In this document: in pieces, positions 771-57,147 of the stretch | Layout of the letters: each line of letters opens with the position of its first letter | Position numbering within the stretch: the first letter of the stretch is position 1 | Assembly (NCBI GenBank): GCA_043806035.1 | Contig: JAZDHK010000016.1 | Span: 2,963 to 66,962, forward strand | Direction of reading: 5' to 3' | Length of the DNA stretch: 64,000 nucleotides | Source of the DNA: an archaeon | GTDB taxonomy: Archaea; Nanobdellota; Nanobdellia; Woesearchaeales; UBA9642 | Made by a program: the position numbers and the translations under genes | The notes under the pieces: model-generated | Databases searched by the model: none | What the model was told of the DNA's origin: nothing | What the model saw: the letters and a program-made list of their open reading frames with translations, nothing else

Positions 771-1546
771 AGTTCTCCTTTGAGCGGCTGCCGCATGTGT
801 TTCTTGTTGACGTACTTTCCTTCTTCGTTGTCCTTCTAACAGTCATTCTTTTCAGCACGGGCCTGGCCAGCACCATTTTGAAGATCAGTCCTGCCGCAGA
901 GACCATACTCTCCTATCAAGCAGGAGGGATGAGCGAGGAAGCATTCACGACCGTGCTAGCATCGTATGAAAGCTCTATCAGGGCAGTTTTTGCCAGCATC
1001 ACCTTGCTGCTCGTCCTGTTCTTCCTGGTCTTGTGCCTCTTACTGGCCTTATTCAGGGGCATGTCTTGGTCGCTGCTCAAAAAACAAGAACTCACACTCA
1101 AGGGGCTGCTGCGAATAACCTTGGCTACGCTGTATTTCGGCATTGCGTCCTTGCTGCTCGCGGTCATCGTGCTCTTGCTTGTCATCAAGACCAGCACCGT
1201 CATCGGGGCAATACTCATTTTCATCTACGTGTTGCTCTTCCTGCACTTCAGCCCGTTCGTCTTCAGCGCCTTTAACCCGAAAATTGGCCCGTTCAAGAAC
1301 TTCTTGAGTGTATTCACGAAAGGCATACTCGTGCACAAGTACTGGCTGTTCTATCTGCTCTGCATTGCAGGGCTTGTCGCCTGCGCCATACTGACGTACC
1401 TTGCCCGGTTCATCCATGATGTTGCGAGCGTCATCGTCCTGCTCATCAGCGCCTACACGTACTGGTTCCTTGCACGACAATACCACGTACACATCACTGT
1501 CGGACGTGACAAGAAAAGAAAAATTATGCACAAGAGGAGAGCATGA
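767..1546 (+). CDS. polytopic integral membrane protein (hypothetical)
   Basis: ATGA overlap with the upstream stop; more than 6 predicted hydrophobic helices; basic C-terminal tail. Confidence 0.5.
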   Translation: MKFSFERLPHVFLVDVLSFFVVLLTVILFSTGLASTILKISPAAETILSYQAGGMSEEAFTTVLASYESSIRAVFASITLLLVLFFLVLCLLLALFRGMSWSLLKKQELTLKGLLRITLATLYFGIASLLLAVIVLLLVIKTSTVIGAILIFIYVLLFLHFSPFVFSAFNPKIGPFKNFLSVFTKGILVHKYWLFYLLCIAGLVACAILTYLARFIHDVASVIVLLISAYTYWFLARQYHVHITVGRDKKRKIMHKRRA

Positions 1547-10778: not shown

Positions 10779-11600
10779 ATGGACGTCGTGCGTGAAGTGC
10801 TTGCCATACTGGGTGAACAGGCAGCAGATAAGCTTACGCCAGCACCAGAGATAGCATCACTCCCTGCTGCACGGCCACATCTTTCTTTTTTCATCGATGG
10901 CAGTCATGCAGAGATGGGAAAACTCACATTCGTACGGACGATAGCGTTTGCCTACAAGGGAAACATTCAAAAAAAGTTTAAGAGAGAATTTTATGTTATA
11001 GGACAGCAAAGCATTCCTGCACAAGATAGCTCTGGCAGAGAAGACGCTGGACTCATGCGCCGCCTTGCCGAGCTTCGACTTGCAGAAGACATAGCAAAAC
11101 AGCATGAAAACGCACTTATCGTTCTTGATGGAAGCCTCGACAGCCCTACTGTTGAAGAGCAAAACTCACTTTTGCGCCTTGAAAAGACATGCATATCTAG
11201 GAACAATACGCTCGCAGGCATATCAAAAACGTGTTCCTACACGTTACAAGGTAAGCTCGTCACGAATGTTGTTGAGCATTGCTGCAAAACAGGATATATT
11301 CCCTTTGGAGAGAGTTTCATCGTGAAACTGCACGAGAAGGCAACATACGCGTTCCGTCTGGATGTGAAGGGAGATTTCATGCAAGCACTACAGGCACTTC
11401 GCTACTATGCGAATGACCCGTCTTTTTTCGGCTATCCGTATCCGCTCATTCGCGCAGACGCACAAGCAAAAATTACGCAGAAAGAGATACAAGCAAAGAA
11501 GAGTCTCCTAGCAAGCAGGGCAGGAAAAGACTGGTCACGGATAAAAGGGCTGTTACAGGATGCGCACGTAATTATAGACAAAATAAACAAAAATGGTTAA
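10779..11600 (+). CDS. putative NurA-like nuclease domain protein
   Basis: Two DGS motifs (FFIDGSH, IVLDGSL) spaced as in the NurA 5'-3' nuclease / RNase H-like fold; 273 aa; no adjacent HerA. Confidence 0.35.
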   Translation: MDVVREVLAILGEQAADKLTPAPEIASLPAARPHLSFFIDGSHAEMGKLTFVRTIAFAYKGNIQKKFKREFYVIGQQSIPAQDSSGREDAGLMRRLAELRLAEDIAKQHENALIVLDGSLDSPTVEEQNSLLRLEKTCISRNNTLAGISKTCSYTLQGKLVTNVVEHCCKTGYIPFGESFIVKLHEKATYAFRLDVKGDFMQALQALRYYANDPSFFGYPYPLIRADAQAKITQKEIQAKKSLLASRAGKDWSRIKGLLQDAHVIIDKINKNG

Positions 11601-13010: not shown

Positions 13011-13313
13011 AGATAGGCGGGGGGCTGATCATCGGGCAACTGAGGAAAGTCCACCCACGCGCCCGCAAGGGAGGTCACTCTTTGAGCTCCAGAAATGGAG
13101 GGCAACCGCGCAAGAAACGACACGGCCTTTGAAAGGGAATGACATGGCGAAGATCCCTGTAAGGGGATTGAGTTAACCCGTAGACGTCTTCAAGGGATGC
13201 GGTGAAACGGCGAGTCCTGACCTGTGCAACCATAATGGGCTAAGTTGAATATCAGCACAATCCCTTCACAAAAGTGAGGATTGACAGAAGGTGGCTTATA
13301 CCTCGCCTATCTT
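13011..13313 (+). ncRNA. rnpB: RNase P RNA (archaeal type)
   Basis: ORF-free region carrying a CR-I-like GAGGAAAGUCCACCCAC and a CR-V-like ACAGAAGGUGGCUUA whose variable positions co-vary to keep the P4 pairing (GUCCACC with GGUGGCU). A P1 helix joins the termini (GAUAGGCG ... CGCCUAUC) and is followed by a T-rich tract. Coordinates approximate (+/-3). Confidence 0.75.
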
Positions 13314-24936: not shown

Positions 24937-25233
24937 CTAATCATCATCCGTTGCATCGTTGAGAGCAAGGTGTTCATACGCCTTGCTCAGCACAAGAATT
25001 GCCTTTGGCACATCACCCAACCTGAGCGTACTCGTAGTCTGCCAGGTGTCGTTCTTGTCCTTGTAGTTTCTTTCCAAAGAAATGGTGTTGTACGTTGCTA
25101 CTTTACCATCTCGAGTTGTGGTGTTTGCCCAAATCGTTGCAGAAACCGCTCCCGCCCTGAATTTCTTTTCTGGCAGGTTCTTTCCCATAACTTCCTGTAC
25201 GGTAGGTATTTTTGTTGGTGTCTTTTCCTTCAT
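24937..25233 (-). CDS. small putative ssDNA-binding protein (PC4/YdbC-like or OB-like)
   Basis: 98 aa; pattern ...TYNTISLERNYKDKNDTWQTTSTLRLGDVPKAILVL resembles PC4-like ssDNA binders; sits between radA and rpa. Confidence 0.35.
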   Translation of the reverse strand: MKEKTPTKIPTVQEVMGKNLPEKKFRAGAVSATIWANTTTRDGKVATYNTISLERNYKDKNDTWQTTSTLRLGDVPKAILVLSKAYEHLALNDATDDD

Positions 25234-26578: not shown

Positions 26579-28453
26579 TCAGACGATCGATACAGGCACG
26601 GTCTCACTTTCGGGCGTGTTGTAGTATGCATCATCAGGAATGACCAGAATTTCATACGTGCCTAAGGGAACATCTGATATGATGAAGAATTCTTTGTCTG
26701 GCGTTTTGTATAGGTTTCCAGGTGTGACGATGTCTATTCCTGCAAAGCAGACTTGCTGGCAAACCACTTGGGAAGAGGCTGCAGGAAGCGCCTCGTTTTC
26801 CTGCAGTATTGACTGCACGAATTCTTGGCCTGCAAGGAACAACGTGATATTGTAGCTGTACACGTGTTCTTCTGCGGAGGGTGTGGGCCAGGTGACAATG
26901 ACATTTCCACTTTCCGGCGTTAGTGGCTGGTATGTTACGCTGACGTCAAGGGCTGCGGGAGGCACAGTATCAGTCAGCGTTATCCCTATTCGTATGGGGA
27001 CTGCTTCTCTGCTCCTTGTCGTTCTGCCGTTGCTTGTTCTGAGCACTTCTGTCTGGCTTCCGTTCGTGAAGCTCAAGCAGAGCGGGTAGTGTTGTTTTTG
27101 TGGCCTGCACAGTCGTTGATTGGTGTACTGAGAGAAGGTAATCCCTTGTTCGCTCCTCACCAAGACGGCATTGTCTAGTGTAGAATCCGGGTCTTCTGCA
27201 CTATAGGAAAGCGTATTCCCAAAGGAGAGATGCTGTACGCTTGGCATGCCTGCTTGCCCCTCGACTTTTGTGTGGAAGGGGATATTGAATGCATACTCTC
27301 CTCCTTGTGCAGTCATGGTTGCACTGCCTTCAAGGGTTATTTCTCCTTGTCCTGAAAGTGGGCAGTAGCAGTTGGTGTCATTGATGTAGTTGCAGTCGTA
27401 GAGTTGTTCGATGAATGTGAAGAAAGGGTCATCGCTGCAGTGCTTGGAAAGCTCGTACGTTGCATTGTCTGTCGTGACATGTTCTGTAAAGCACTGCTCG
27501 AGGTTGTCGTTACAGTCGTGGACGATCTCTGTTGAGAATTCTTTGAGATGATTGTATGCTGCAAAGTCGTACTGTACTGTCCTGTCAATAAATGGCAAGT
27601 AGGAGTAACTGCCGAGGTATTCACCTGCAACTTTTTGCGTTTTTCCTGGTTTCTCTCCAAGAAGAGGTGTGCCTCCAGGAATGGCTGGAGGGAATGGGTC
27701 ATTTTTGGGAAACACCCACACTTTGGGGTTTTTGCCAGACACCCAATCCATGCCACTTTGGAATGCAGGATTTGATTCTTTGCCAATACCAACATAGACG
27801 TCGATGTGAGACGTGCAGTACAGCGCTCCTCCTGTGTCTTCGGCAACATACCATCCCGTCCAAGGATTGTCAGGCTCGTCAAATTCCAAATACACTTTCG
27901 AACCATAAGGAATGTTGCAGTTCAGGCAACGATACGGGCTATCAGCGTTATAATTTTTTGCTGTACAGGTTTCTGGGCCGAACGGATTTACGGCGATTGT
28001 TCTTCCTACGATGGGTGGTTCCGAGGAATGATATGCCTTTCCGAGAGTGGGTGCTGCTGTGGAGTCTGCTTTTGATGGCTTTATCCTGATGGGAGATTTT
28101 CCATCACCCGTGTATGCCTCGCCGTTTGTCCCTATTCCTCCCCCTTGGCAGAGCACTTCCTCATAAAAGCCGACAAGTTGGGGATTGTGTCTGTTCCTGT
28201 CAGCGAAGACACAGGCGGCTTGGCTGCTGGTTATGTCGCAGCCAACACACCAAGCATCATATTCGTCCTCCAATGGAGTGTTGTAGATGGTGGTGTATGC
28301 CTGTCCTGATCCTGGATAGTTAGGGGGTCCAGTTGGGTGTGGGTCTCTGATGATTTCGCCTGTTATTTGCTGTGTTGCTTGTTGGTGGGGCCAGAGCAAG
28401 ACAACTGCTATTGCAAAAAGAGCAAGTACTGCTACAATGATTGTTGTTTTCAT
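26579..28453 (-). CDS. large secreted Cys-containing protein (hypothetical), last gene of the surface operon; start taken at MKTTIIVAVLALFAIAVVLLW
   Basis: Signal/anchor helix followed by about 600 aa with many Cys/Asn/Thr; ATGA-type overlap with the upstream M15 peptidase gene. Confidence 0.5.
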   Translation of the reverse strand: MKTTIIVAVLALFAIAVVLLWPHQQATQQITGEIIRDPHPTGPPNYPGSGQAYTTIYNTPLEDEYDAWCVGCDITSSQAACVFADRNRHNPQLVGFYEEVLCQGGGIGTNGEAYTGDGKSPIRIKPSKADSTAAPTLGKAYHSSEPPIVGRTIAVNPFGPETCTAKNYNADSPYRCLNCNIPYGSKVYLEFDEPDNPWTGWYVAEDTGGALYCTSHIDVYVGIGKESNPAFQSGMDWVSGKNPKVWVFPKNDPFPPAIPGGTPLLGEKPGKTQKVAGEYLGSYSYLPFIDRTVQYDFAAYNHLKEFSTEIVHDCNDNLEQCFTEHVTTDNATYELSKHCSDDPFFTFIEQLYDCNYINDTNCYCPLSGQGEITLEGSATMTAQGGEYAFNIPFHTKVEGQAGMPSVQHLSFGNTLSYSAEDPDSTLDNAVLVRSEQGITFSQYTNQRLCRPQKQHYPLCLSFTNGSQTEVLRTSNGRTTRSREAVPIRIGITLTDTVPPAALDVSVTYQPLTPESGNVIVTWPTPSAEEHVYSYNITLFLAGQEFVQSILQENEALPAASSQVVCQQVCFAGIDIVTPGNLYKTPDKEFFIISDVPLGTYEILVIPDDAYYNTPESETVPVSIV

Positions 28454-29601
28454 CCTGCACCGCACCTTCCTATTCTTCCTTGCTCGCACAGGTTTTGTTT
28501 TCTGGCAGAGTCCCACATTCTCGTTCCGTACTCGAAATGCCACCATTCCTCACCGTATCTCACCCAGCCAATGTCACACATGAAATCCTCGAGTTGGTTC
28601 TGGAGCGCGCACTGCTCATCAGTAAAGGAATACTTTGCGTACGTGTAGCTTGCCCCTCTAGGTCCTAGATTCACTTCGTGATCAGATGCATCATACAAGG
28701 CAATGTCTATCGCACCCCCAGTCATGTGCGGGGCTGTAATGGGCCTGTCAGGTGTGCCGCAGCGTGGCTGGGCAACCCCACTGCATCTGCCAGTGAATGG
28801 CTCGTTGGGACAGTAGCTTCTCCAGATGCTTTTCTGCTTTTCAAGGCTCCTAAAGCCGCTTACGATAACTAACTCGTATGTCTGCCCATTAGGAAGCCCT
28901 TGTTCTTTGAGCAGTTGGGCAGTTTCCTGGATTTTTTTCTCAACTTCAGGGAGGACTCTGCAGCCGTCTGCTCCCGCAGTGCAGCGCACGTTCTCTATGG
29001 GGACGAGTTCGTTGTCAGTAGGACAGTAGATGGCTATTGCTTCCGTTAGTGAGGATGAAATGTATCGGAGGCTTTGTTCGAGTTTTCCTGCGCCGAGAGG
29101 GATAATGAGTGGTTGTATTGCTGTTGCAAAGATACGATATTGTGCTGGCAGTTCTGAGATCTTCTGCAAAGTAAAAGTAATGAAGGGATCGCTGAGTGAA
29201 ATGAGTCTTTTGTGATTGGAAAGGAACGGATCTAGTGCGTTGTTGAAGAACTCTGCCAGGCTTGTGGGTATATCTGGTGTGCAGTCGTTCCCTTGCCCGT
29301 TCCAGAGGTTGTACATGTACTCGCCACAGGGGCTGCCACCACCATCCTCGCCAGGCATGATGCCTCCATTGTCTGCCATTTCCGAAATTGCATAGTCGAG
29401 CGCATGTGGTGTTGCAATATCCAGATACGTTTGCGCTTCGCTGCCTTGCAGGTATGCGTTGATGAGTGCTGCTTGCTTTGTACCTATTGCTTTGGCTGCA
29501 TTTTGCGGGCTGTCGTACTTGCTGCTGAGCAAGGCCCAGGCAGTGAAGAGTGCTATGATTACCATGATGACGACGGCAGGGAGGAAAAAGTGGGCTTTCA
29601 T
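28450..29601 (-). CDS. M15-family (VanY-like) zinc D-Ala-D-Ala carboxypeptidase, membrane-anchored; start taken at MKAHFFLPAVVIMVIIALF
   Basis: C-terminal motifs SGFRS, HMTGGAIDIAL (H-x6-D zinc ligands) and EWWHFEY characteristic of Peptidase_M15 / VanY. Confidence 0.6.
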   Translation of the reverse strand: MKAHFFLPAVVIMVIIALFTAWALLSSKYDSPQNAAKAIGTKQAALINAYLQGSEAQTYLDIATPHALDYAISEMADNGGIMPGEDGGGSPCGEYMYNLWNGQGNDCTPDIPTSLAEFFNNALDPFLSNHKRLISLSDPFITFTLQKISELPAQYRIFATAIQPLIIPLGAGKLEQSLRYISSSLTEAIAIYCPTDNELVPIENVRCTAGADGCRVLPEVEKKIQETAQLLKEQGLPNGQTYELVIVSGFRSLEKQKSIWRSYCPNEPFTGRCSGVAQPRCGTPDRPITAPHMTGGAIDIALYDASDHEVNLGPRGASYTYAKYSFTDEQCALQNQLEDFMCDIGWVRYGEEWWHFEYGTRMWDSARKQNLCEQGRIGRCGAG

Positions 29602-29602
29602 G

Positions 29603-30121
29603 TCATACCTTGCTGGGCAGTTGTTGTATGTTCTTGTACCCTTCAGCAGCAACGTTACCTGGCTGTATGATTCGTAATCTTAACGTTATTGCATTCCCAT
29701 CAGCTAAAGGGAGTTGCACGTGGACGCTCTCTTCGTCTGAAAGCGAGATAGTGCAGCAGTACTTGTCGTTGTTCACGCCAGGCCACTGTTCGATGGACAG
29801 CCGCCATTCTGTTGATGGATAATGACTGGAGAGTCTTCCTGTGATTATACCTTTGAGGTCGTTTGCACTCTGCTGATCTTGCGTGAGCACTGCTCTGCCG
29901 ATGAGTTCGCCGAGAGTAGTGAGTCCTTCCCGCACAAGCACTTGTTCCTTGAGAAGGCTTATGAGATAGAATTGCGCTTCATTACTTGTGGTTATCTGCG
30001 CTATTGCACGATGCTGTGCTGCCGCGCCCGCAAGCTTGAAAATGACGTAGAATGCGATGACAACTATGACGAAGATGAAAATGGCCAGGAGATCTGCGAT
30101 AAAGCTTAGTCCGCGTTTCAT
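29603..30121 (-). CDS. pilin-like protein with class III signal peptide (MKRG|LS...)
   Basis: MKRGLSFIADLLAIFIFVIVVIAFYVIF: short basic n-region, Gly, then a hydrophobic helix; 172 aa. Confidence 0.55.
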   Translation of the reverse strand: MKRGLSFIADLLAIFIFVIVVIAFYVIFKLAGAAAQHRAIAQITTSNEAQFYLISLLKEQVLVREGLTTLGELIGRAVLTQDQQSANDLKGIITGRLSSHYPSTEWRLSIEQWPGVNNDKYCCTISLSDEESVHVQLPLADGNAITLRLRIIQPGNVAAEGYKNIQQLPSKV

Positions 30122-30125
30122 GTTT

Positions 30126-30671
30126 TCAGCTGTTCGGGGTGATGATGTGGACGAGCAGGGTGCCTCGTTCCTCGCCCATTATCGTTGAAAAAGTAACGGG
30201 GACGTCTCTGATGAGGATGCTTGCAGAGCCTTTGCCCGTGATGCCTGTCTCTACATAAGGACAGAGTTTCGTGTAGAGTGCTTTGTTGAGGTATGTGGTC
30301 TTGGCAAATGTGCCATTACGTTCTGTACAGGGAGCTCTGTCGTGGTCGTCAGAACTGGCGAAGTCATTGCGTATGAAGGTTATTTTTGCTGCGATGTGTT
30401 CTTGTGCCGTGTAGTGTATGCCAGAAAGCGTGCTGCTCGAGATGTCATCCCAGGAGATGAGGCCTATGTTTGGCCGGTTCAGTCCTTCGTGAGATTCCCA
30501 CAAATCAGGTGAGTAGTATATTCTGTAGAACAGGACGTCTCGGGAGACTTCTTGCACGTCAAGTCTGGTGAGGATGTAGAGTTCGATGAGCAGGATGACT
30601 GCAGTGAATGCGAAGATGAGGACCAATACTCGTATAACGTGCTCAAAATAGTATTTGACCTGACCTTTCAT
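30126..30671 (-). CDS. pilin-like protein with class III signal peptide (MKG|Q...)
   Basis: MKGQVKYYFEHVIRVLVLIFAFTAVILLIELYIL: KGQ motif with Gln+1 as in Methanococcus EppA-dependent pilins. Confidence 0.6.
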   Translation of the reverse strand: MKGQVKYYFEHVIRVLVLIFAFTAVILLIELYILTRLDVQEVSRDVLFYRIYYSPDLWESHEGLNRPNIGLISWDDISSSTLSGIHYTAQEHIAAKITFIRNDFASSDDHDRAPCTERNGTFAKTTYLNKALYTKLCPYVETGITGKGSASILIRDVPVTFSTIMGEERGTLLVHIITPNS

Positions 30672-31519
30672 GTGTAGTACTCCATGAGCGTTTCCTTGAT
30701 TGCCGTGGTGAGTTGTTCCTGTCCTGTATTGTCAAGCGGTGGCGTGAGGATGACGATGGCTATTTCTGCATTGATGTCTTGCACTCCTCTGACGGGGAGT
30801 TCTTGCATGCTGAGTATGCTCGTCACATCAAGATCGTATCTTTTTTTGAGGATGCAGGTGAATTTTTGCATGCCGAACACATTTGGCCCATCGAGATAAT
30901 AGAGTTTAGTGGCGGTGTAGGAGCTGTTCTGGAAGAGTGCTATCCTGACATCTGCCGTATCCCAGGCAACACCAAGATGCTCAAGAGGGAGGTCGAAGCG
31001 GAATTGGGCAAGCAGGTGGCTTTGCATGCTTTCGTCAGCATCGAACGCTATTCTTTTTTCGCTAATGTTTGCGCTTGTGGAGAAATCAATACATCCGGAG
31101 AGGGAAAGTTGCTGGCTGACTTCTATGCGGTTGCCATTCTTGTTCAAGTAGATGATGTACGGCACGAATGTCTCAGGGAGCAAATAGGTGAGTCTGTTGT
31201 CCGTGGCGTATGGGAAGTTTGCGGGTGAGTTCTTTTTCTTGTCTGACTGCTCGTACACGCTCACCCGGTCCGTGCCGAATTCTATGAAGATGCCTTGCTT
31301 GAGATCCACTTGCGGAATCTGCTGGTAGGTGAACGCGACATCACCATCTGCCACAGGCAGGAGGTCCATGATGAGCGCTGTATCTCGCGCAAAATAATTC
31401 CTCCAATAGGTTGTGTCATTGACCTCGCCCCTGACATAAATCATAAGAGCAACGGCGACAACGCCGAGCATGACGAGCTCGAAGATGAAATACCACGGCA
31501 GACTCATCTGACCTTTCAC
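30668..31519 (-). CDS. pilin-like protein with class III signal peptide (MKG|Q...)
   Basis: MKGQMSLPWYFIFELVMLGVVAVALMIYV; 283 aa; overlaps the downstream pilin-like gene by 4 nt. Confidence 0.6.
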   Translation of the reverse strand: MKGQMSLPWYFIFELVMLGVVAVALMIYVRGEVNDTTYWRNYFARDTALIMDLLPVADGDVAFTYQQIPQVDLKQGIFIEFGTDRVSVYEQSDKKKNSPANFPYATDNRLTYLLPETFVPYIIYLNKNGNRIEVSQQLSLSGCIDFSTSANISEKRIAFDADESMQSHLLAQFRFDLPLEHLGVAWDTADVRIALFQNSSYTATKLYYLDGPNVFGMQKFTCILKKRYDLDVTSILSMQELPVRGVQDINAEIAIVILTPPLDNTGQEQLTTAIKETLMEYYT

Positions 31520-31592
31520 AACCCACCTCTCAGTCCTCTTCCGAGAGGAGCATTAAAATGTTTTTCGTTTAAGGGCGCGTGCGGTAACCTGT

Positions 31593-31931
31593 TCATCGCA
31601 GAATGATTGATGTGAAGTACTTTTCTTGGAATTCAGTCATTGCACGTATTTGATCGTCCGTGTATGTTTTTCCTTCGGGAACGATGACGAGTTTGTCCTC
31701 GACATCATCGAGTCTGTGGATGACCGCTATGCACTCGCCAGTAAATTCTTGGACGGGTTCGAAGACACCGAGAACGTAGGCATCGAGATCTTCTCCGTCA
31801 GGCGCGGGAACACCCGGCAGATATCCGTAATTGTAAACGTAATAGATGTCATGAATCCTCGGGTGCCTGCTTCCCATTGGCCGGTCAATTTTCACATGTA
31901 CGACTTTTCCGAGAAATTCTTTTGATTCCAT
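31593..31931 (-). CDS. miniature inorganic-pyrophosphatase-like protein (112 aa)
   Basis: Matches the family I PPase core: YVYNYGYLPGVPAPDGEDLDAYVLG (cf. E. coli [23 protein letters not shown]), KLVIVPEG (cf. KLVAVP), EFQEKYF (cf. HFFEHYK); lacks about 60 aa of the canonical enzyme. Confidence 0.55.
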   Translation of the reverse strand: MESKEFLGKVVHVKIDRPMGSRHPRIHDIYYVYNYGYLPGVPAPDGEDLDAYVLGVFEPVQEFTGECIAVIHRLDDVEDKLVIVPEGKTYTDDQIRAMTEFQEKYFTSIILR

Positions 31932-31932
31932 G

Positions 31933-32940
31933 TTACATCAGAAACATCACGGCATACCCCACAAGGCAGCCTATGGTGAGAAAGGGCATGGCGGGATAGA
32001 ACTTGTCTTTCTTTGCAAAATAGAAAAGCAGACCGAGTGCAAGTGCTGCTCCTAACACAACGGGGGTGGTGTGCAGGAATGCGGCTGATTTTGTCATGCC
32101 TGTGCTGAAGAGTTGGGTGAGTGCAGTTCCTGCGAACAAAAGAGGGAATGCAATGTCCCCGCCGCCGAGAATGGCGTGCTTGTGCTTTCCTGGCAAGAGG
32201 GGTGTTGCATGGTGCGTGCTTGCATGTACTGCGTGCTTGCTTGCGTGTTCTTTTTGCTTGTAGGGAAAGTAGAGTCCTGCAAAAAGGTTGCTTTTCGTCT
32301 GGAATTGGGCCATTTTGACCATGTGTTTGCTCTTCCACACTGCATATGCGTCATACAGTGATACGGCGAGCAGAAGTAGGAGCGCCCATAGCACGTTGAA
32401 AAGGGGAACAAAGAGCAACGCTATGCCTCCGTACATGAATATTTCTGTGAGGTTGTGGATGATGAGATTGGGTTTCCAGAGCTTCCATGCTGCAAGAGCT
32501 GCTGCAATGAGCAATGCAATGAAAGCGGGGAAGAAAACGCCCAGCGTTACGGTTATTGCAAACCACACGGCGAGGAAGAACCAGAACTTCCATATGCCTA
32601 TCTTGTTGAATTTCATGAGTAAGAGCAGTAGAATTGTCCCTATGCCAACGCCGATGACGACGAGCAGGAAGCTCTGGCTACCCTCCGTCTTTGGTCGTTC
32701 TCCCAATGCTGTGTCTCCGTATTGGACTGTTATAGTGCCGTTCACCGTCTGTACGTTCGCCTCTTTCGTTATGAGAAATAAGCCAAAAAACTGTGCGGCG
32801 AGAAATGTTGCCAATAAAGCGAAAGTAACGAGCCAAGAGTGCTTCATACAGAGATAGTGTTCGTTTGATTTATAAGCATTTGTATCTGCAGCATGCTGCG
32901 CAAGACATTCGTTCGCGTCATCGTTGCAATGACACTTCAA
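31933..32940 (-). CDS. presenilin / signal-peptide-peptidase-like intramembrane aspartyl protease (A22-type, GxGD)
   Basis: Nine predicted TM helices; YD in TM6 (LAVSLYDAYAV), hydrophilic loop, GxGD in TM7 (ILGGGDIAFP), PAL-like PAM in TM9. Confidence 0.6.
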   Translation of the reverse strand: MKCHCNDDANECLAQHAADTNAYKSNEHYLCMKHSWLVTFALLATFLAAQFFGLFLITKEANVQTVNGTITVQYGDTALGERPKTEGSQSFLLVVIGVGIGTILLLLLMKFNKIGIWKFWFFLAVWFAITVTLGVFFPAFIALLIAAALAAWKLWKPNLIIHNLTEIFMYGGIALLFVPLFNVLWALLLLLAVSLYDAYAVWKSKHMVKMAQFQTKSNLFAGLYFPYKQKEHASKHAVHASTHHATPLLPGKHKHAILGGGDIAFPLLFAGTALTQLFSTGMTKSAAFLHTTPVVLGAALALGLLFYFAKKDKFYPAMPFLTIGCLVGYAVMFLM

Positions 32941-35032
32941 TTATTCCCAAAGTGTCTTCTTTGTAATCTATTTGGTATTTGTCTGTCCCTGACAGTCCGT
33001 ACGTTCGTTTATAGATGGGCGTGTCTGTTATGTGAAGAAGTGGCAGGACGTTCTTGAGTGAGGCGGAAATGCCGAGTTCTCCGAAAGAGAATGGTTTTGT
33101 GTAGCCTATTCCCGCTCCCAGCTCGAAGCTGGGAGGCAACCGTTTTCCGTTTCTCATTTCATTTTCGAGAAAGCTCACCTCACCTATGCCGGGAATGGTT
33201 ACCCGTCCTACCCGTTTATCCGTGTAGGGAAATCCATCCCTAAAACTGAAGTTGGTGAAGACGCGCCAGGGCTTGACGTGATAATCTAGGCTCAGTCCGC
33301 ATTCAAAACGGCGATCTTTGTCAATGAAAGAGGGGATTGTTCCTTTTTCTCCTAGTCTCGTCGTTCCCAAGAGGGCATAGCTGCCTATCGTCCACTTTTT
33401 CATAGTTAGGTCGTATTGGAGCAACGACCATGTGCTGTAGCCGTACAACGATGTGCCTTTGCTCTCGACCGCATCCATGCGCGCACCAGCGCATTCCACA
33501 CGAAGAGAACCAGTGTACACGCGTCTAGAATATGCTGTGCTCGCTCCCGTTGTTGTCGTGAAGACTGCCGTTTTGTTCAGGTCAGCATCCTCTCCAGCAA
33601 AGGTTGATCCGCCTATCGAGTAGACGTTGTGGCGGAGCATGCGCAGTTCAAGAATGTATGTTGGTGTCATTCTTGTCCATGTCGCTTCAAGTGCAGGTTT
33701 AATGTCCCTGCTTTTTTTGTGCACGAGTGTTTGGTCTATCCTGCCCCCTAGCGTCAGTGTTCCTGGGCCAAGAGAAACTGCCGTCTCCCCTCCCGCTGCA
33801 AGAGTAGTTATGGACATGGTGTCTCTGGTTTGATTTGCGTCAGCTGCCGTCAGATCTTTTCGTACGGCATTTCCTTCTTGGACAGAACCATCAATGACGA
33901 GGAGTGTTTGTTTGCTATGCCTCCAGATGAACTTTCCGAACTGTTGCTTGAGTTTTGCCGTGCTTTCTCTCCGAAAACTGACTTGTGATGTGCCTACTGA
34001 TTCTTCGCCGTCCGTTGTGTAGTTAAGGTAACTGTCGAGCGAGGAAAAGGACATAGACAGTGTGTCGTTGGAAAAGAAGGTTGTTGCTGTTGCGTGCAGG
34101 TTTGTTTTTCCTTCTTTAGCGTCTAGGACAGCGTCTAGGTATTTGTCCCTGCTGCCATAGACGTGCGTTCTGCTTTTGTCTTGCTCAAAACCAAGTTCGA
34201 ACTTTCCTCGTCTTGACTCGCCGAAGAGGTAGTGGAGCAGATTTTCTGATGCGGGGAGCACCGTGTTGCGCGGCAGGGAATACATCGTGCCTGCAATCCA
34301 TTGGTACGTTGTCTGTCCGTAGTCTGTCTCTGCTGCAATGCTGCCCCTCTTTCCTGATACAAGAGGGTATGCTACGCGTATGCTCGATGCAGGAATGCCC
34401 GTCTTTACCGAGTATGCTATGCGTTCTGGTTGGTCGAGCGCCGTGAAAACACAATAATCAACGCCATATGCGGGATAGGCAATGGATCCGTGCCGCACTG
34501 TTTTTTGTGCAGAAAGCGGTTGTATCCCTGTCCAGCGCCCTGCGAGAGGATGCTGTTGGTGCACGCCTATCCCTCCGGGCGTGTATTCAAGAACATCTAT
34601 GCCTCTGATGGTGACGTCAGCGTCGAGCGTTGGCTTATTGTCTATGACTCTATTCTCTAGTCTGAGCTGGCCTTGTTCGTTGAAGCTTCCCGAAAGAGAC
34701 AGGGGTATGTGGGGCTGCTCGGCAACGATGAAGACTTCTTGAGCGAACAGCGGAATGTCAAGAAGCACAATGCTATCCAAGCTGGCTATTGGGACGTTTT
34801 GGAGTTGCTTGCCGATGCATCTGATCGTGACGCTGTCGATGGGCTGTGCAGTGTTAAGCACGAACACGCCTTGCTCGTTTGTGCTCACGAACCCAGAATG
34901 TGATGGGTCGAGGACGGTTGCTCCAACAACAGGGCGTCCTTCCTTGTCGACGACCTTTCCCGTATACACGTCCGCTATTGTCGTCGAGACGAGTAGCGAG
35001 GACGCGAGCAGCAATGATAATAATTTCCCCAT
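32918..35032 (-). CDS. large secreted beta-rich protein with N-terminal carboxypeptidase-regulatory-like (CarboxypepD_reg) domain; first gene of the surface operon
   Basis: Signal peptide MGKLLSLLLASSLLVSTTIA; VYTGKVVDKEGRPVVGATVLDPSHSGFVSTNEQGVFVLN matches the CarboxypepD_reg fold; remainder has alternating beta-strand-like pattern; start codon shares CATG with divergent nucS. Confidence 0.55.
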   Translation of the reverse strand: MGKLLSLLLASSLLVSTTIADVYTGKVVDKEGRPVVGATVLDPSHSGFVSTNEQGVFVLNTAQPIDSVTIRCIGKQLQNVPIASLDSIVLLDIPLFAQEVFIVAEQPHIPLSLSGSFNEQGQLRLENRVIDNKPTLDADVTIRGIDVLEYTPGGIGVHQQHPLAGRWTGIQPLSAQKTVRHGSIAYPAYGVDYCVFTALDQPERIAYSVKTGIPASSIRVAYPLVSGKRGSIAAETDYGQTTYQWIAGTMYSLPRNTVLPASENLLHYLFGESRRGKFELGFEQDKSRTHVYGSRDKYLDAVLDAKEGKTNLHATATTFFSNDTLSMSFSSLDSYLNYTTDGEESVGTSQVSFRRESTAKLKQQFGKFIWRHSKQTLLVIDGSVQEGNAVRKDLTAADANQTRDTMSITTLAAGGETAVSLGPGTLTLGGRIDQTLVHKKSRDIKPALEATWTRMTPTYILELRMLRHNVYSIGGSTFAGEDADLNKTAVFTTTTGASTAYSRRVYTGSLRVECAGARMDAVESKGTSLYGYSTWSLLQYDLTMKKWTIGSYALLGTTRLGEKGTIPSFIDKDRRFECGLSLDYHVKPWRVFTNFSFRDGFPYTDKRVGRVTIPGIGEVSFLENEMRNGKRLPPSFELGAGIGYTKPFSFGELGISASLKNVLPLLHITDTPIYKRTYGLSGTDKYQIDYKEDTLGIIEVSLQR

Positions 35033-37669: not shown

Positions 37670-38974
37670 TTAGAAGTTTGTTTCTTTGATTGCCGTGGGT
37701 GCTGAGCCGCCATGCCACGTGAACCTTGGGCGTATGGCGATGGGGAAGAGTTTCTCATTGTTGTCGTCGAAGATGAGCGCTGCTCCGCTTATTCTGGGTA
37801 GGTCGTCGAGCTGCTGGACGAGGCCTTCGCGCATGTAGCTCTGCATCAACGCACCCAATGACTCCGTGTCTATCTTTGCCGTGATCCTGTGCGCAATAAC
37901 CGTGTCCGCTTGCGTCATGACGTCCGTGTGGATTTTTCCCGGCTGCTGCGTTGCCAGAATTAATGAAATGCCCGGCTGCCTGCCTTCTCGGAGGATGGTG
38001 ATGAGCGGCTCTGTGGCGAGCGTCTTGCCCTGGTTGGGTAGGAATTCGTGTGCCTCGTCGATGATCAACCACACCATGGGGAAGCTTTCCTGCTTCTCCT
38101 CCTCGCCAAAATAATTCACGGTTTTGTGTATTGCCTCGTATTCTTCGTCTTTCCTTGCGAGCATGCGCTGCACGAACAGTTTTTCTGCAACGAGTCCGAC
38201 GATAAGGTTTTTGATGTTCCACGAATTTTCAACGGTCGCATAGCAGGATAGATCGAGGACGGTTATTTGGCCTCCGCGGACGAGATCAGTCAGCGGTGTT
38301 CCTTTGTTGCTGAAGATGCCCCAGCGTGCTGCGGCCTGGAAGAGGTTGAGTGCTGACTGCTTGACGTGCTGTTCTTCTTTGTCATCAGCGGAGATGTTCT
38401 TGATGATGTCCTGCATCGTATAGGGATTGCCTGCGTCTTGCATGTCCTGAATGATTCGTTCGACAAAAACACCCACTGGTTCTGTTGTGCTCAGGCTGAA
38501 TGTACTGCACCAATCACTGCCCTCCAGCTCTGACGGTTGCAGGCTGAACGGGTAATCAGTGGGAATTCCTTTTTTCATGTACTCATCGTAATAGCCGCCT
38601 GGTGTGTAAATCTTGATGTCCAATCCTTTCGCATCGAGCCCCCATTCCTTGAGGAGTTGCTTGTCCTTCTGGTTGGGATATTTCATGGTCCAGTACACTC
38701 CCATGGTGTCGAGCAGGATGACAGATATGTTTTTCTTAATCTCAATAGGGACGTCAGCAACGCCTTCTGCAATGACGCCCATGGTGTAGCTCTTTCCAGA
38801 ACCTCGCTTGCCTACGACGAAGACGACATGGCTTCGTACCATGTCTAGGTAGACGTTGCTCGACAAAGAGGTAGTCATGCCCATCTTGACATAATGCCTG
38901 CCTAAGAACACAGCTCCTTTGAGACCGTATGCCTTCTTGTCTGCTTCTGTTCGGCCGATGACGATGTCGTACAT
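37670..38974 (-). CDS. HerA/FtsK-like P-loop ATPase (DUF87 family); start taken at MYDIVIGRT
   Basis: Walker A VVGKRGSGKSYT; Walker B WLIIDEAHEF; overall DUF87/HerA-like order of motifs. Confidence 0.55.
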   Translation of the reverse strand: MYDIVIGRTEADKKAYGLKGAVFLGRHYVKMGMTTSLSSNVYLDMVRSHVVFVVGKRGSGKSYTMGVIAEGVADVPIEIKKNISVILLDTMGVYWTMKYPNQKDKQLLKEWGLDAKGLDIKIYTPGGYYDEYMKKGIPTDYPFSLQPSELEGSDWCSTFSLSTTEPVGVFVERIIQDMQDAGNPYTMQDIIKNISADDKEEQHVKQSALNLFQAAARWGIFSNKGTPLTDLVRGGQITVLDLSCYATVENSWNIKNLIVGLVAEKLFVQRMLARKDEEYEAIHKTVNYFGEEEKQESFPMVWLIIDEAHEFLPNQGKTLATEPLITILREGRQPGISLILATQQPGKIHTDVMTQADTVIAHRITAKIDTESLGALMQSYMREGLVQQLDDLPRISGAALIFDDNNEKLFPIAIRPRFTWHGGSAPTAIKETNF

Positions 38975-39090
38975 GCTGTGCTTATGACGGGAGAGCTTTA
39001 AAAACTTATTGCTCCTTGTTGGGGAGTGACAAATCACAAACTTTAAATAACCTCAGCGAATACGAAACCGAGAGGTGAGGAGGGGGAGGC

Positions 39091-40446
39091 ATGGATTCTA
39101 CGTCCAAGAAAGATATAGACCACATCAACAAGCTTGCAAAGGCACAGAAAAGACCAAGTAAGGCTGTTCACAAAACACATCGGCGAAAAGTCGAGAAGAA
39201 AGAGCCAAAAAAGAAATCGCTCACGTGGCTGTGGATTGTACTTGGGGTTGTTGTCGTTGCCGTGGTCATCGCATTTATCTATTCGCAAGTACAGCAGCCT
39301 CCTGCTCCTTCGCAGAACACTGCTAAAATCGCTGCTATCGTGAATGGTGAGAAGATCATGCTAGATGATCTCCAAGACCAGTACGACCGACTGCCCGCTC
39401 AAATCAAGAGTCTGTACACGCTGTCAAGTTTCCTCAACCAGACCATAGAAGAAAAACTCCTCCTCCAGGAAGCAGCACGGCAGGACATCATAACGACTGA
39501 CGATCAGGTGCGGGAAGCACTTGATTCGTTCATCACGGAACGAGGGCTCACGCAAGCTGACCTTGAGGGATTGCTCGCACAACAAGGAGTAACGATGCAG
39601 TACTTCACGGATCTCATCAAGAAGCAACTCACTCTCACGGCGTTGTTCAACAAGACCATCTTCAACGAAATAACGGTGTCTGATGAAGATGTGCAAGCGT
39701 ATTATGATCGCAACAGCGCAGCGTTCGAAGCGCCGGAGCAAGTGACGGTGAAGCACATTCTTGTCAGCAATGCAACACAGGAAGAACCAGCTGCGCTTGT
39801 TGAGGAGCTCAAGGCAAACATCAGTGATGGCGCTGATTTCTGCACGCTTGTCACAGAATATACGGAAGATCCTGGAAGCAAGGACAAGTGTGGAGAGTAC
39901 ACCTTCCCTCGTGGCGTGATGGTTCCCGAATTCGAGGATGCAGCATTCTCGCTCGATGATGGCGACATGGCTATTGTGCAGACCCAGTTCGGCTACCATC
40001 TCATCTTGAAAGTGGAGACTATTGCAGCAAACCCTCGCCCCTTCTCTGAGGTCTCCGATGAAATAAAGAACCAGCTTACTCAAGAAAAAAGCCAACAGGC
40101 GTACATAGCGTACCTGGATGAGCTCAAAGCAAAGGCGAACATCCTCATCCTGCTGGATGAGGAGATAGTCAGCCCTGCAAAGCTTGCTGCGTGCCTTACT
40201 GCGCAAGGTGCAAAAATGTACGGTGCATACTGGTGCGGCCATTGTGCAAACCAGAAGGAACTCTTCGGAGATGCTGCACAAGATATGCCTTATGTGGAAT
40301 GCGCAATTGCAGAAAATCCCCAAGAACAGACGGATGCGTGCAAGGAAGCGGGCATCAGCGGCTATCCGACATGGATAATCAATGGGCAGAAGTATGAGGG
40401 CGAGCAATCGCTTGAGAGCCTCAAGAGCATCTCTGGTTGTGCGTAG
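39091..40446 (+). CDS. membrane-anchored SurA-like chaperone / parvulin PPIase fused to a C-terminal thioredoxin-like CxxC domain
   Basis: Basic N-terminus plus TM; PpiC domain (VKHILVSN...FGYHLILKV); C-terminal AKMYGAYWCGHCANQKELFG...GISGYPTWIINGQ resembles the Trx-like partner domain of VKOR proteins. Confidence 0.65.
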   Translation: MDSTSKKDIDHINKLAKAQKRPSKAVHKTHRRKVEKKEPKKKSLTWLWIVLGVVVVAVVIAFIYSQVQQPPAPSQNTAKIAAIVNGEKIMLDDLQDQYDRLPAQIKSLYTLSSFLNQTIEEKLLLQEAARQDIITTDDQVREALDSFITERGLTQADLEGLLAQQGVTMQYFTDLIKKQLTLTALFNKTIFNEITVSDEDVQAYYDRNSAAFEAPEQVTVKHILVSNATQEEPAALVEELKANISDGADFCTLVTEYTEDPGSKDKCGEYTFPRGVMVPEFEDAAFSLDDGDMAIVQTQFGYHLILKVETIAANPRPFSEVSDEIKNQLTQEKSQQAYIAYLDELKAKANILILLDEEIVSPAKLAACLTAQGAKMYGAYWCGHCANQKELFGDAAQDMPYVECAIAENPQEQTDACKEAGISGYPTWIINGQKYEGEQSLESLKSISGCA

Positions 40447-51000: not shown

Positions 51001-51963
51001 TCACTCATTCTCTCCGCTTGACTTCACAAGGATTTTCGTGATGATCGATTCCTGGAAGTCATAGTCAATCCAGATATTGACGAGTTTCGTCTTATCCTGA
51101 CGCTCTGATTCGGGGATTTGCTGCACGCAGCTCACTGTCCTTGAGCCACTGACCAGTTTCACGACACCAGAAGCCACACCATCAGAGTCTGTGGTGAATC
51201 CTTGGCAGGAGAAGTCTCCTTCGATGCCCGTCTTGACACGCACCATAACTTTATCCTCTGCGGCTCTCGCCTGCGCGTTCGTGAAGCCGTATGCGCATTC
51301 GGTGCCGTTCTCGAAGACCTTGCCTGCTCCTCTGCTGACTTCGAACGTGAACCTAATCTTATCAGATCCTTGCGTGTATTCTTGGAAGTTAGCTATAGCG
51401 ACCGGTGCTCCGGAATATTCGAACTTTTTCGGACCCGAGACGATGCAGACCTTGGTGTTCTTGCTGTCGAGGAGGTTTTTCTTGATGCACAATTCTCCGA
51501 TTGCTCTTGTCTGGTAGACGTAACACGCATCTATGACGATGGGAAATTCGTGATTACCAGGAAGATCCTCGACGTGGTTAAGCGCGAAGTATTCTGAAAC
51601 GGGGGCGAAGCTCTCTATCTTTCCCGTGTCAGGATTCAGACGGACAGCGAGAAGATCATCATCTGCTGTGCTTCTGAAGTCATCGCTGTTGTTGACACCG
51701 AATTCTCTGGCATCAAGTCCTTTAAGTTCGATATGCATGTCATCCATGTCAACAGTAGTCTCTCCTTTGTTTTCCATGCGGATGCCGACTTCGAACGGGA
51801 AGTCCCCGCCAGCCGTGACATAATCGGGAGGTGCGTCTGGCTCGAAGCTGATGACTACTCCGGCATTTCCACCCGCATAGAATCGGGTGTTTGATGGTTG
51901 CTGCGAACCACAGGCAGTGACGAGGAATGCAAGCACAAGCAAGGGTATAAAGAGTTTATTCAT
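51001..51963 (-). CDS. lipobox lipoprotein, paralog 1 (signal MNKLFIPLLVLAFLVTAC)
   Basis: Lipobox LVTAC|GS; body shares the ...F(E/K)PDAPPD..FPFEVGIRMENKGET pattern with the two upstream lipoproteins. Confidence 0.5.
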   Translation of the reverse strand: MNKLFIPLLVLAFLVTACGSQQPSNTRFYAGGNAGVVISFEPDAPPDYVTAGGDFPFEVGIRMENKGETTVDMDDMHIELKGLDAREFGVNNSDDFRSTADDDLLAVRLNPDTGKIESFAPVSEYFALNHVEDLPGNHEFPIVIDACYVYQTRAIGELCIKKNLLDSKNTKVCIVSGPKKFEYSGAPVAIANFQEYTQGSDKIRFTFEVSRGAGKVFENGTECAYGFTNAQARAAEDKVMVRVKTGIEGDFSCQGFTTDSDGVASGVVKLVSGSRTVSCVQQIPESERQDKTKLVNIWIDYDFQESIITKILVKSSGENE

Positions 51964-52021
51964 GAATTCTACCTCCTTCTGTGTCTTTCTGTGACGAATG
52001 GTTTTTTATAGTTTGTCCTTT

Positions 52022-53317
52022 TTAGCCTGCCCGCTTCACGTACACGTGCCTTTCTATCGTTTCCGAATAGCCATACCAGAGCTCGATGATGAGCGGTGTG
52101 GTGTAGGCACTGCGCATGGTCGCGTATTGTAGGTCGTATGTGCAGACGATGGTGCCTGTCTTTGTTTTTGGATCGAGCCTGATGAAGTCTTCATTGCAGG
52201 TGAGCCTGCTGCCTCGAGATGGCGCATTGTCCCTGCTGCCCGCTATGCGTATATCTCCCAGATAGATGACGTTCAGATGCTTGCTGCGTAAGTCTCCTGG
52301 ATAGTAGGGAGAGCACCTTTCCAGATAACCTGGGTCTATAACATCTCCTCTGCCTATGTTCTTGACGGTTATGGTGAAGACGACACTCTGTGGGGTGGGT
52401 TCTGCATCGATGTGCGTTATTGCCACGGGTGCTCCTTGGCTGCCTTTGAGATTCACTTGGTTTGCCCTGCATACCTTCCTGTCCTCGGAGAAGGGTGCTG
52501 GGTCTATGCATATGTCTGGGCTGGCGTACGTTGCGTACGCGTAGCAGTTCGTCACGAGGAATGTTTGTTGGGTGTGGTCGAGATTGGATGGCCAGTTGTA
52601 AATGCGCCCGTTGAACGTGATGTAGTCCTGCTGACCTCCAGGATAGTATTGCGTGTTCCCCGCAAGTAAGTATTCTTGGCCGTTGTACCTGCTGAGGTTC
52701 ATGCCTGCGAGCGCGAAAAGCAGACCTCTACCGTAGTTGAGTATGTCGACGTTGATGCCTGCCCAGTTCAGATGCACCGCTCCGTTGTTACCATTTTGGT
52801 CATACTCTATCTGAAAGTCGTTAAGCCAGGTCCAATCATCGTTGCTTCTCGTTATCTTGTTGAGAAAATCACCAATTCTGTTGAGTTGTATGCCCCAGTG
52901 CGTGTTGTCCTGATATTCGGCATGAACGCCGTTGCAGACGAAGGATATGAAGAAGCTCGTCCAGTCGCTCATTTGGTTGAAGTCAAAACCACAGTCCGAC
53001 ATGCCCGTGGGATCGACGCTGAATTCCTGGAAGCGCATCATGCCCGGGTCAAAACCGCTCACGAAGACTGCCCCTCTCGTATAGCTTGCTCCTTTATCGT
53101 GTAGAATCATGCTCACGGTGAAATCGTTGGGAGCATCCCGTGCCTGTGTCGGCGTAAAATAGTACAGCCTAACGGGGGGACTGCCCGAGTCGGCAAATTC
53201 CATTCTTACTCCTTCTGTTCCTGTAAAGTATTGCTTGTCAGGATTTTGCTTGTTGCTGTAGCTGCCACATCCTGTTAGAAAGAGCAAAAACACCAATGCC
53301 AGAATAACTCGCCTCAT
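52022..53317 (-). CDS. lipobox lipoprotein, paralog 2 (signal MRRVILALVFLLFLTGC)
   Basis: Lipobox LTGC|GS; beta-rich with W/Y/N-rich repeats. Confidence 0.5.
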   Translation of the reverse strand: MRRVILALVFLLFLTGCGSYSNKQNPDKQYFTGTEGVRMEFADSGSPPVRLYYFTPTQARDAPNDFTVSMILHDKGASYTRGAVFVSGFDPGMMRFQEFSVDPTGMSDCGFDFNQMSDWTSFFISFVCNGVHAEYQDNTHWGIQLNRIGDFLNKITRSNDDWTWLNDFQIEYDQNGNNGAVHLNWAGINVDILNYGRGLLFALAGMNLSRYNGQEYLLAGNTQYYPGGQQDYITFNGRIYNWPSNLDHTQQTFLVTNCYAYATYASPDICIDPAPFSEDRKVCRANQVNLKGSQGAPVAITHIDAEPTPQSVVFTITVKNIGRGDVIDPGYLERCSPYYPGDLRSKHLNVIYLGDIRIAGSRDNAPSRGSRLTCNEDFIRLDPKTKTGTIVCTYDLQYATMRSAYTTPLIIELWYGYSETIERHVYVKRAG

Positions 53318-53349
53318 ACCTCTTTCTCCATCTTCAGGGTTTATAAATT

Positions 53350-54921: not shown

Positions 54922-54981
54922 GTCGTTCTTGTGTTGCAGAGGGGTTATAAATGTTTTGGCTGCAATCATGCTTCACTGTGC

Positions 54982-57102: not shown

Positions 57103-57147
57103 GCTTACCTCTTTTTAGCAATTCTCGAGAAAGGACTATTTAAATGT

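Follow-up and report, generated by a model that had tools for sequence, protein, structure and literature searches.

A conserved organisation of murein hydrolases in DPANN archaea

The gene block and its conserved part

The locus described here lies in a 64,000-nucleotide stretch of DNA (contig JAZDHK010000016.1; hereafter the window) from an archaeon of the Woesearchaeales. At 26579-35032 the window carries eight open reading frames (ORFs), G1 to G8, all in one direction on the minus strand, their starts having been picked by signal and model fit. The block is bounded by the divergent nucS gene (Pfam NucS_N/NucS_C) on one side and by rpa downstream on the other, boundaries that a preliminary description of the sequence had called sharp. 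Within it the conserved unit is G4-G8 only (26579-31519), a five-gene cassette that is a lineage-specific module of Woesearchaeota/Nanoarchaeota-type (DPANN) archaea and that encodes a D-Ala-D-Ala carboxypeptidase and an MltA-like protein. The window is itself archaeal, with an archaeal RNase P RNA at 13013-13310, and also encodes RadA, RadB, RPA, NucS, Topo VI and NurA. The cassette has the following features.

31520..31592, minus strand: region upstream of G4, putative promoter of the G4-G8 unit as read from the sequence
30668-31519, minus strand: G4, cassette protein A, 283 residues
30126-30671, minus strand: G5, cassette protein B, 181 residues
29603-30121, minus strand: G6, cassette protein C, 172 residues
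28450-29601, minus strand: G7, cassette protein D, 383 residues
29002..29601, minus strand: N-terminal carrier domain of G7, residues 1-200
28516..28941, minus strand: VanY/Peptidase_M15 domain of G7, residues 221-362
26579-28453, minus strand: G8, cassette protein E, 624 residues
27689..28336, minus strand: catalytic region of G8, residues 40-255, with the Pfam 3D match at residues 181-228

Synteny with related loci (designated by L numbers, and single proteins by P numbers) was reached through G8, since word-indexed searches gave too few relatives of G4 and G7: among 5.8 billion proteins G4 had no homologue but itself, and G7 had two distant matches, one of them P0004. The order A-B-C-D(-E) followed by rpa is found in the window and in L002, L004, L009, L010/L015, L013, L017 and L018, in genomes of 31-56% guanine plus cytosine (GC). 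The repeated arrangement, seen on the contigs of the G8 relatives and in loci from scans of genomes and metagenomes, consists of a G4-like protein of about 140-320 residues, a G5-like protein of about 150-200 residues, a third small protein, a protein with the N-terminal domain of G7, which may stand by itself or be joined to hydrolase modules and a 3D domain, and then rpa. Local profile searches place the G4 and G5 families at the expected position with coherent alignments. Members of the G4 family occupy the matching position in L002, L004, L005, L009, L010, L013, L017 and L018, that of L004 being a 635-residue protein fused to a GDSL lipase, and share the motif ARDxAL..D....PG.v.F.Y; the G5 family is marked by R..YSP..FAY.D..T.R.YPG.ID. 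Neither G4 nor G5 has a Pfam or PDB match. G6 appears to be the positional orthologue of the third cassette gene of the relatives, an assignment that draws mainly on position, the sequence support being weak. The same local searches found no homologue of G1, G2 or G3 in ten related loci. As G4-G8 recur and G1-G3 have no counterpart there, the conserved unit is G4-G8, and conservation of gene order, the test suggested in the preliminary description, holds for these five genes and fails for the first three.

The setting of the cassette is likewise conserved. It always lies directly upstream of rpa and in the same direction, and several loci share with the window the exact order rpa, a conserved protein of about 100 residues, radA; the content from rpa to ssb/radA varies. 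This position may simply be inherited gene order, and any link of the cassette to DNA uptake or recombination is speculation. The protein between rpa and radA in the window (24937-25233, minus strand; 98 residues) has no Pfam match, is kept in place in L004, L009, L010 and L013 (58-77 bits) and is probably a small DNA-binding partner of RPA/RadA. In L002 (8939-9676) and L017 (14047-14769) a Polysacc_deac_1 gene overlaps the 3' end of rpa, right after the cassette; polysaccharide deacetylases are another family that acts on peptidoglycan or chitin.

As to the hosts of these loci, one relative of G8 is named "[Candidatus Woesearchaeota archaeon]". The titles of L006-L009 and L011 read "uncultured Methanosarcinales", an attribution that looks like a placeholder or an error and was set aside in favour of Woesearchaeota/Nanoarchaeota, to which both gene content and named protein records point. 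Phage lysis and tail proteins often contain M15 peptidases or lytic transglycosylases, and the cassette might pair an endolysin with a tail-associated lysin and serve an integrated virus or other mobile element for lysis or entry. This explanation has next to no likelihood. The cassette keeps a fixed chromosomal place by rpa-ssb-radA in genomes of widely different GC, GC is flat across the region, no integrase or tRNA lies nearby, and neither G7 nor G8 has a match in 50,697 phage records or in IMG/VR viral contigs.

The remaining three genes of the block precede the cassette.

32918-35032, minus strand: G1, 704 residues, secreted, beta-rich protein; neighbour outside the cassette
31933-32847, minus strand: G2, 304 residues, presenilin/SPP-type intramembrane protease; neighbour outside the cassette
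31593-31931, minus strand: G3, 112 residues, truncated family-I pyrophosphatase-like protein; neighbour outside the cassette

Of the enzyme assignments made earlier for the block, those of presenilin/SPP, of VanY/M15 and of pyrophosphatase pass the Pfam cut-offs, and that of CarboxypepD_reg does not. The CarboxypepD_reg/SusC-N-terminal-like domain of G1 scores 25.2 bits against a cut-off of 32.2. G2 reaches 53.9 against 23.9 bits for the Pfam SPP family and carries the motifs YD (residue 165), GGGD (228) and PAM (285), although it stays below the cut-off of the NCBIfam PSH equivalog (69 against 125 bits). G3 passes the Pyrophosphatase model with 27.7 against 23.5 bits and contains DGEDLD; the match spans no more than model positions 30-114 of 153, and both ends of the fold are missing. 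Prepilin peptidase was considered as an identity for G2 and rejected: its matches are to SPP/PSH, none to Peptidase_A24 was reported, and the loci of the relatives lack it.

The preliminary description had further taken the eight genes, with gaps of 0-4 nt or overlaps, for a single 8.4-kb transcript in which the protease, the mini-pyrophosphatase and the CarboxypepD_reg protein cooperate with pilin-like proteins and the M15 peptidase. The tight spacing is real for G2-G3 and for G4-G8, where the junctions G2/G3, G4/G5, G5/G6, G6/G7 and G7/G8 are separated by 1-4 nt or overlap: the start of G3 lies 1 nt from the stop of G2, G4 and G5 overlap by 4 nt, and the start of G8 overlaps the stop of G7 (ATGA). 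It does not extend to G1-G2, which are 70 nt apart (taking the ATG of G2 that fits the PSH model), nor to G3-G4, which are 73 nt apart. Ahead of G1, G2 and G4 stand TATA-like octamers, 28-40 nt from the start: G1 has its own box at -30, G2 has TTATAAAT 28 nt upstream, and G4 has ATTTTAAT about 40 nt ahead of a GTG start directly preceded by the Shine-Dalgarno-like GAGGTG. A similar element (ACATATAAAC) precedes rpa, and none was seen in the sequence upstream of G3, G5, G6, G7 or G8. This pattern points to three transcription units, G1, G2-G3 and G4-G8, the last presumably co-transcribed, and G1-G3 would then be unrelated neighbours with promoter-like elements of their own. The shared direction and the well-defined ends of the block speak for a single unit, as does the GxGD class of G2, a catalytic class common to prepilin peptidases. 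The two gaps with their TATA-like boxes, the lack of G1-G3 homologues in loci where G4-G8 recur, and the membership of G2 in the SPP/PSH family nevertheless make the eight-gene transcript very improbable.

The two hydrolases and the carrier domain

G7 consists, in order, of a signal resembling those of class III (MKA|HFFLP...), a domain here called the carrier domain, and a VanY/M15 D-Ala-D-Ala carboxypeptidase. The last exceeds the Pfam gathering cut-offs for both VanY (30.7 against 25 bits) and Peptidase_M15 (28.9 against 27 bits). In M15 enzymes the zinc ligands and catalytic glutamate are supplied by H-x6-D and E-x2-H, together with SxxR, and all three motifs are intact in G7, as HMTGGAID (residue 292), EWWH (352) and SGFRS (248). 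The protein contains 12 cysteines. The closest non-self relative of its VanY domain, with 36% identity, is P0003, which combines VanY with Pfam PF18895. We take PF18895 to be a type IV secretion pilin-like domain common in candidate phyla radiation (CPR) bacteria; if so, P0003 is a parallel, bacterial fusion of pilin and peptidase.

The carrier domain has no match in Pfam, NCBIfam or the PDB and is recognised by the motif IG..Q..L..AY...E..L.Y.D..A ... CG.Y..LW....C.P. Because an iterative profile of G7 residues 1-225 that took in full-length fusions also gathered 3D-domain proteins, trimmed alignments were used instead. The resulting profile, covering G7 residues 1-200 with five relatives, matched 1,232 of 1.84 billion cluster representatives at E<=1e-3, of which 536 were at E<=1e-10. 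In the best 150 of the 1,232 matches the domain starts within residues 1-33 and ends by about residue 200, in proteins 110-1334 residues long. The carrier is associated with murein-directed enzymes: among the best 92 matches, whatever can be recognised beyond the carrier belongs almost without exception to a peptidoglycan hydrolase, the Pfam partners being M23 (18), VanY (13), SLT (12), Peptidase_M15 (11), glucosaminidase (6), 3D (3), Lysozyme_like (3) and Amidase_2 (2), and also NlpC/P60, CHAP, M15_2/3/4 and phage-tail lysozyme, plus FN3. All five matches with a named organism are archaeal (two Woesearchaeota, one Nanoarchaeota and two entered as "archaeon"). The carrier domain is so a lineage-specific N-terminal module that bears murein hydrolases of nearly every catalytic class.

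G8, which had been described only as a cysteine-containing secreted protein, was under-read, its 3D domain and MltA-like predicted fold having been missed. The protein comprises an N-terminal membrane helix, an MltA-like/3D lytic transglycosylase region, a cysteine-rich linker and Ig/FN3-like C-terminal domains, with 18 cysteines in all. The 3D domain scores 33.8 bits against a Pfam cut-off of 23.8. AEDTG and HIDVY are present; across 15 homologues E205 never varies, and D206 and D218 hardly do. An AlphaFold2 model built on a 15-sequence alignment has a predicted local distance difference test score (pLDDT) of 66-89 per 10-residue block over residues 41-250, except at residues 161-180 (53-56), and a whole-model mean of 60.7; its confidence is adequate for use only across most of residues 40-255. 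Its top two Foldseek matches in the PDB are both MltA, 7esj_A (E 5e-4, probability 1.0) and 2pnw (E 9e-3), with TM-scores that are low (0.13-0.28). Identity of G7 and G8 to solved structures is too low for PDB sequence matches to the catalytic domains, and sequence and profile searches of the PDB with G1, G7 and G8 returned only FN3 repeats and the SusC N-terminal domain.

The relatives link the two enzymes. G8 has 14, several of them fused to Peptidase_M15_4, Amidase_2 or M23, and the carrier domain occurs fused to M15_4 and 3D (P0011), Amidase_2 and 3D (P0010), M23 and 3D (P0016) or 3D alone (P0018). G7 and G8 are thus functionally tied, because relatives often carry both as one polypeptide. 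In L001, a 10.8-kb metagenome contig that holds P0004, a VanY gene is followed by the gene for a 929-residue 3D-domain protein.

N-terminal signals and the proposed apparatus

The translations bear out the earlier observation that three small proteins begin with MKGQ, MKGQ and MKRG followed by one hydrophobic helix. G4 (MKG|Q), G5 (MKG|Q), G6 (MKRG|L) and G7 (MKA|H) each have a helix of about 20 residues directly after a short basic leader ending in Gly or Ala; the MKA-HFFLP signal of G7 is of the same type, and its 46%-identical relative P0035 has MRKG-HFFLP. A hydrophobic helix stands at the N-terminus of each of the 68 cassette and upstream proteins examined, preceded directly by [KR][GA] in 57 of them, and their alignment gives the consensus M....KKG. 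Among the carrier-domain proteins the corresponding figures are 144 and 114 of 146, the commonest forms being KKA (48) and KKG (43), with Q as the commonest residue at +1. Class III signals are known in archaea on pilins, archaellins, sugar-binding proteins and proteases, non-pilin enzymes among them (PMC2910488, PMC3047682). The N-termini of G4-G7 look like a form of this archaeal class III (prepilin-type) signal, and are presumably cleaved.

These signals, the two hydrolases and the conserved gene order are best accommodated if G4-G8 encode an apparatus for degrading bacterial murein that is displayed at the cell surface and perhaps mounted on a pseudopilus, an explanation considered probable, though by no means secure. 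The N-terminal helices would insert the cassette proteins in the archaeal membrane, where the four pilin-like proteins G4-G7 would form a small complex, of the minor-pilin/pseudopilus type or of the bindosome type, built by machinery encoded elsewhere and presenting the two hydrolases at a distance from the cell surface. G8, as a membrane-anchored MltA-like enzyme, would cut the glycan strands of murein and G7, as a zinc D-Ala-D-Ala carboxypeptidase, its peptide stems. The outcome might be the opening of the sacculus at a contact site during attachment to host or prey, the release of wall fragments as nutrients, or both. Assembly of a filament or complex is an inference, as is the bacterial target. 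The linkage of pilin-like N-termini to a peptidoglycan-type peptidase makes it reasonable to think, as the preliminary description did, of a surface apparatus aimed at the wall of another cell, and its view that the gene content is unlike that of Epd/Aap pili is shared here.

Several observations weigh against the pilin-like part of this explanation. No Pfam or NCBIfam pilin or class III model matches any of the 68 cassette proteins, G4-G7 included, and a strict FlaFind-type pattern fits 9 of the 68 and in the window cassette only G4. Of the DUF361 motif QxSxExxxL, G4 has Q+1 and S+3 but not E+5. G5 has charged residues shortly after the putative cleavage site, and G8 has no K/R-G motif. In G7 a proline-containing linker parts the signal helix from the next helix, unlike the continuous alpha-1 of pilins, and an AlphaFold2 model of its carrier domain (residues 1-200, 6-sequence alignment) was uninformative, with a pLDDT of 47.6. 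Profile searches of the PDB gave no match for the G4, G5 and carrier-domain families, and in profile-profile comparison of these families only the KKG-plus-helix signal aligns, with nothing else in common; the three are not detectable paralogues. As the preliminary description had stated, the block has no gene for a pilus assembly ATPase or platform protein: a FlaI/FlaJ/PibD-type gene is absent from it and from the 48 neighbouring window ORFs scanned (64 kb), and no assembly ATPase, platform protein or prepilin peptidase is encoded within 10 kb of the cassette in L001, L002, L004, L005, L017 and L018. Nor does the 64-kb window contain a gene for a small major pilin.

The same facts lend themselves to a simpler arrangement, in which G7 and G8 are plain membrane-anchored exo-enzymes with uncleaved anchors, G4-G6 are unrelated accessory or structural membrane proteins, nothing pilus-like is assembled and the target is still bacterial murein. 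The missing pilin matches and assembly genes suit it, as do G8 without its K/R-G motif and the helix of G7 running into a linker. A plain anchor, however, would not need Gly or Ala at that place, whereas one of these directly follows the basic residues in 78-84% of the proteins, mostly as KKG or KKA and with Q at +1. In relatives, moreover, runs of up to 14 such signal-bearing genes, including those for pilin-sized products of 43-126 residues, adjoin the cassette; in L001 the gene products of the upstream run all start with ...KKG or ...KKA and a hydrophobic helix. Plain anchoring is the main alternative and is rated as rather unlikely, though it deserves to be taken seriously.

Two further loci in the window and some in the relatives have proteins with comparable N-termini. 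Candidate major pilins in the relatives are cysteine-rich proteins of 43-126 residues with ..KKG[DEV].S. and a helix, encoded upstream of the cassette (L001 258-1682; L005 3929-4473; L009 6476-6760; L017 4063-4979; L015 115-297). Within the window, 1543-3687 (plus strand) encodes a 714-residue protein starting MKGQVTIFVVIG..., a textbook class III-like signal (MKGQVTIF...), with no Pfam match; it is homologous to the product of L011 2001-3998, directly upstream of the gene for a 2149-residue 3D-domain protein. A second surface-protein cluster, at 51001-58818 (minus strand), is syntenic with L008 3903-10662 and encodes a 556-residue class III-like protein (MTRTGKRG and a helix; 57148-58818), a 706-residue protein and three paralogous lipobox proteins, none with a Pfam match. 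A 660-residue homologue in L008 ends in a 3D (MltA-like) domain, and the cluster may be a second murein-directed module.

A bacterial wall is taken as the target of the apparatus because archaea lack murein and no murein-synthesis gene was seen among the 56 window ORFs scanned (64 kb). M15, MltA, M23 and amidase enzymes are classical autolysins, and they might instead act on a murein-like sacculus of the archaeon itself, for example to let appendages pass; the SurA_N/parvulin foldase encoded in the window could be counted in favour of this. The missing synthesis genes, and surveys in which these DPANN hydrolases are taken to be aimed at bacteria and no murein pathway is reported (PMC8204110, PMC9723730), make a role as autolysins very improbable as far as 64 kb can show. 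The foldase (39091-40446, plus strand) is a SurA_N and parvulin PPIase fused to a thioredoxin domain, likely an extracellular foldase/oxidoreductase, which would fit the many cysteine-rich secreted proteins nearby.

A more elaborate form of the murein-degrading apparatus makes G4-G7 the four minor-pilin-like subunits of an archaeal type IV filament or pseudopilus whose tip bears interchangeable murein hydrolases and drills through the walls of bacterial hosts. This version is regarded as unlikely. Under it, the position by rpa-ssb-radA could reflect coupling to the uptake and recombination of host DNA, for which competence pili and the Ups/Ced systems of Sulfolobus would be the analogues.

Three other features of the window may be recorded. 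An intein bearing a LAGLIDADG homing-endonuclease domain splits the topoisomerase VI subunit B gene (4894-8259, plus strand; 1121 residues in total). A DUF87/HerA-like ATPase with a Zot-like segment (37670-39037, minus strand) stands alone beside nucS, and the sole NurA gene of the window (10779-11600, plus strand) is 27 kb away from it, which is unusual for a HerA-NurA pair.

Relation to known systems

What emerges is a conserved arrangement of murein hydrolases in DPANN archaea that had not been described before. No description of murein hydrolases linked to pilin signals, or of this cassette, was found in the literature searched, and neither is mentioned in a recent census of the type IV filament systems of archaea. 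DPANN archaea of the Woesearchaeota type are abundant, have no cultured members and may in some cases parasitise bacteria. Scattered reports of DPANN murein hydrolases are here brought to a defined, searchable module, consisting of a five-gene cassette and a carrier domain that recurs in some 1,230 protein clusters. Cassette and carrier provide a genomic marker for candidate bacteria-targeting archaea and concrete proteins for trial on bacterial sacculi.

The nearest precedents come from archaea. For the large lytic transglycosylases of Woese- and Pacearchaeota, bacterial walls have been put forward as the substrate (Castelle et al. 2021, PMC8204110; Vigneron et al. 2022, PMC9723730). Like the cassette proteins, they belong to the same lineage, are extracellular and anchored, and are inferred to degrade or bind bacterial murein. 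They are, however, GH23/SLT-type giants described singly, whereas the cassette pairs an MltA/3D-type enzyme with an M15 peptidase in a set of five conserved genes, with class III-like signals and a carrier domain that also bears SLT, M23 and amidase modules. Killing of bacteria has been demonstrated for secreted peptidoglycan hydrolases of archaea (Strock et al. 2025, PMC12352652), and these too are bacterial-type murein hydrolase domains deployed outside an archaeal cell against bacteria. Sec or Tat signals were found on 32% of the archaeal hydrolases surveyed in that work, many others being unexplained; class III signals and pilin-like carriers were not considered, and DPANN archaea were barely covered (PMC12352652). 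Where an archaeal peptidoglycan hydrolase has neither a Sec nor a Tat signal, a class III-type signal may be the explanation.

With the bacterial enzymes MltA (GH102) and VanY/M15B the cassette has catalytic features in common, namely the acidic residues of 3D and the H-x6-D, E-x2-H and SxxR motifs of M15. It differs from them in its archaeal host, its lineage-specific N-terminal carrier and its C-terminal Ig/FN3-like domains.

For the possible mode of assembly, the bindosome of Sulfolobus (Bas; PMC3047682, PMC2910488) offers a close likeness: class III signals on non-pilins, small pilin-like partners and retention at the cell surface with no visible pilus. The Bas system handles sugar-binding cargo and has its own adjacent FlaI/FlaJ homologues (BasEF), in contrast to the cassette, with its hydrolases and no such adjoining genes. 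The tip complexes of four minor pilins (GspH-K, FimU-PilVWX, ComGD-G) resemble the cassette in having about four pilin-like genes of low similarity in a row. Modular type IV pilins, such as PilB and PilC of Streptococcus sanguinis (Raynaud et al. 2021, PMC8179133), also graft a module behind a pilin-type N-terminus, and murein hydrolases are not listed among their 15 most frequent architectures (PMC8179133). Unlike these bacterial proteins, the cassette has no IPR012902-type motif (G|F..E5) and no match to a pilin hidden Markov model, and its pilin fold and filament are putative. Common to both are effector modules that can be swapped on a constant carrier. If the pilin-like interpretation of the cassette were true, it would be, as far as found, the first type IV filament with wall-degrading enzymatic subunits.

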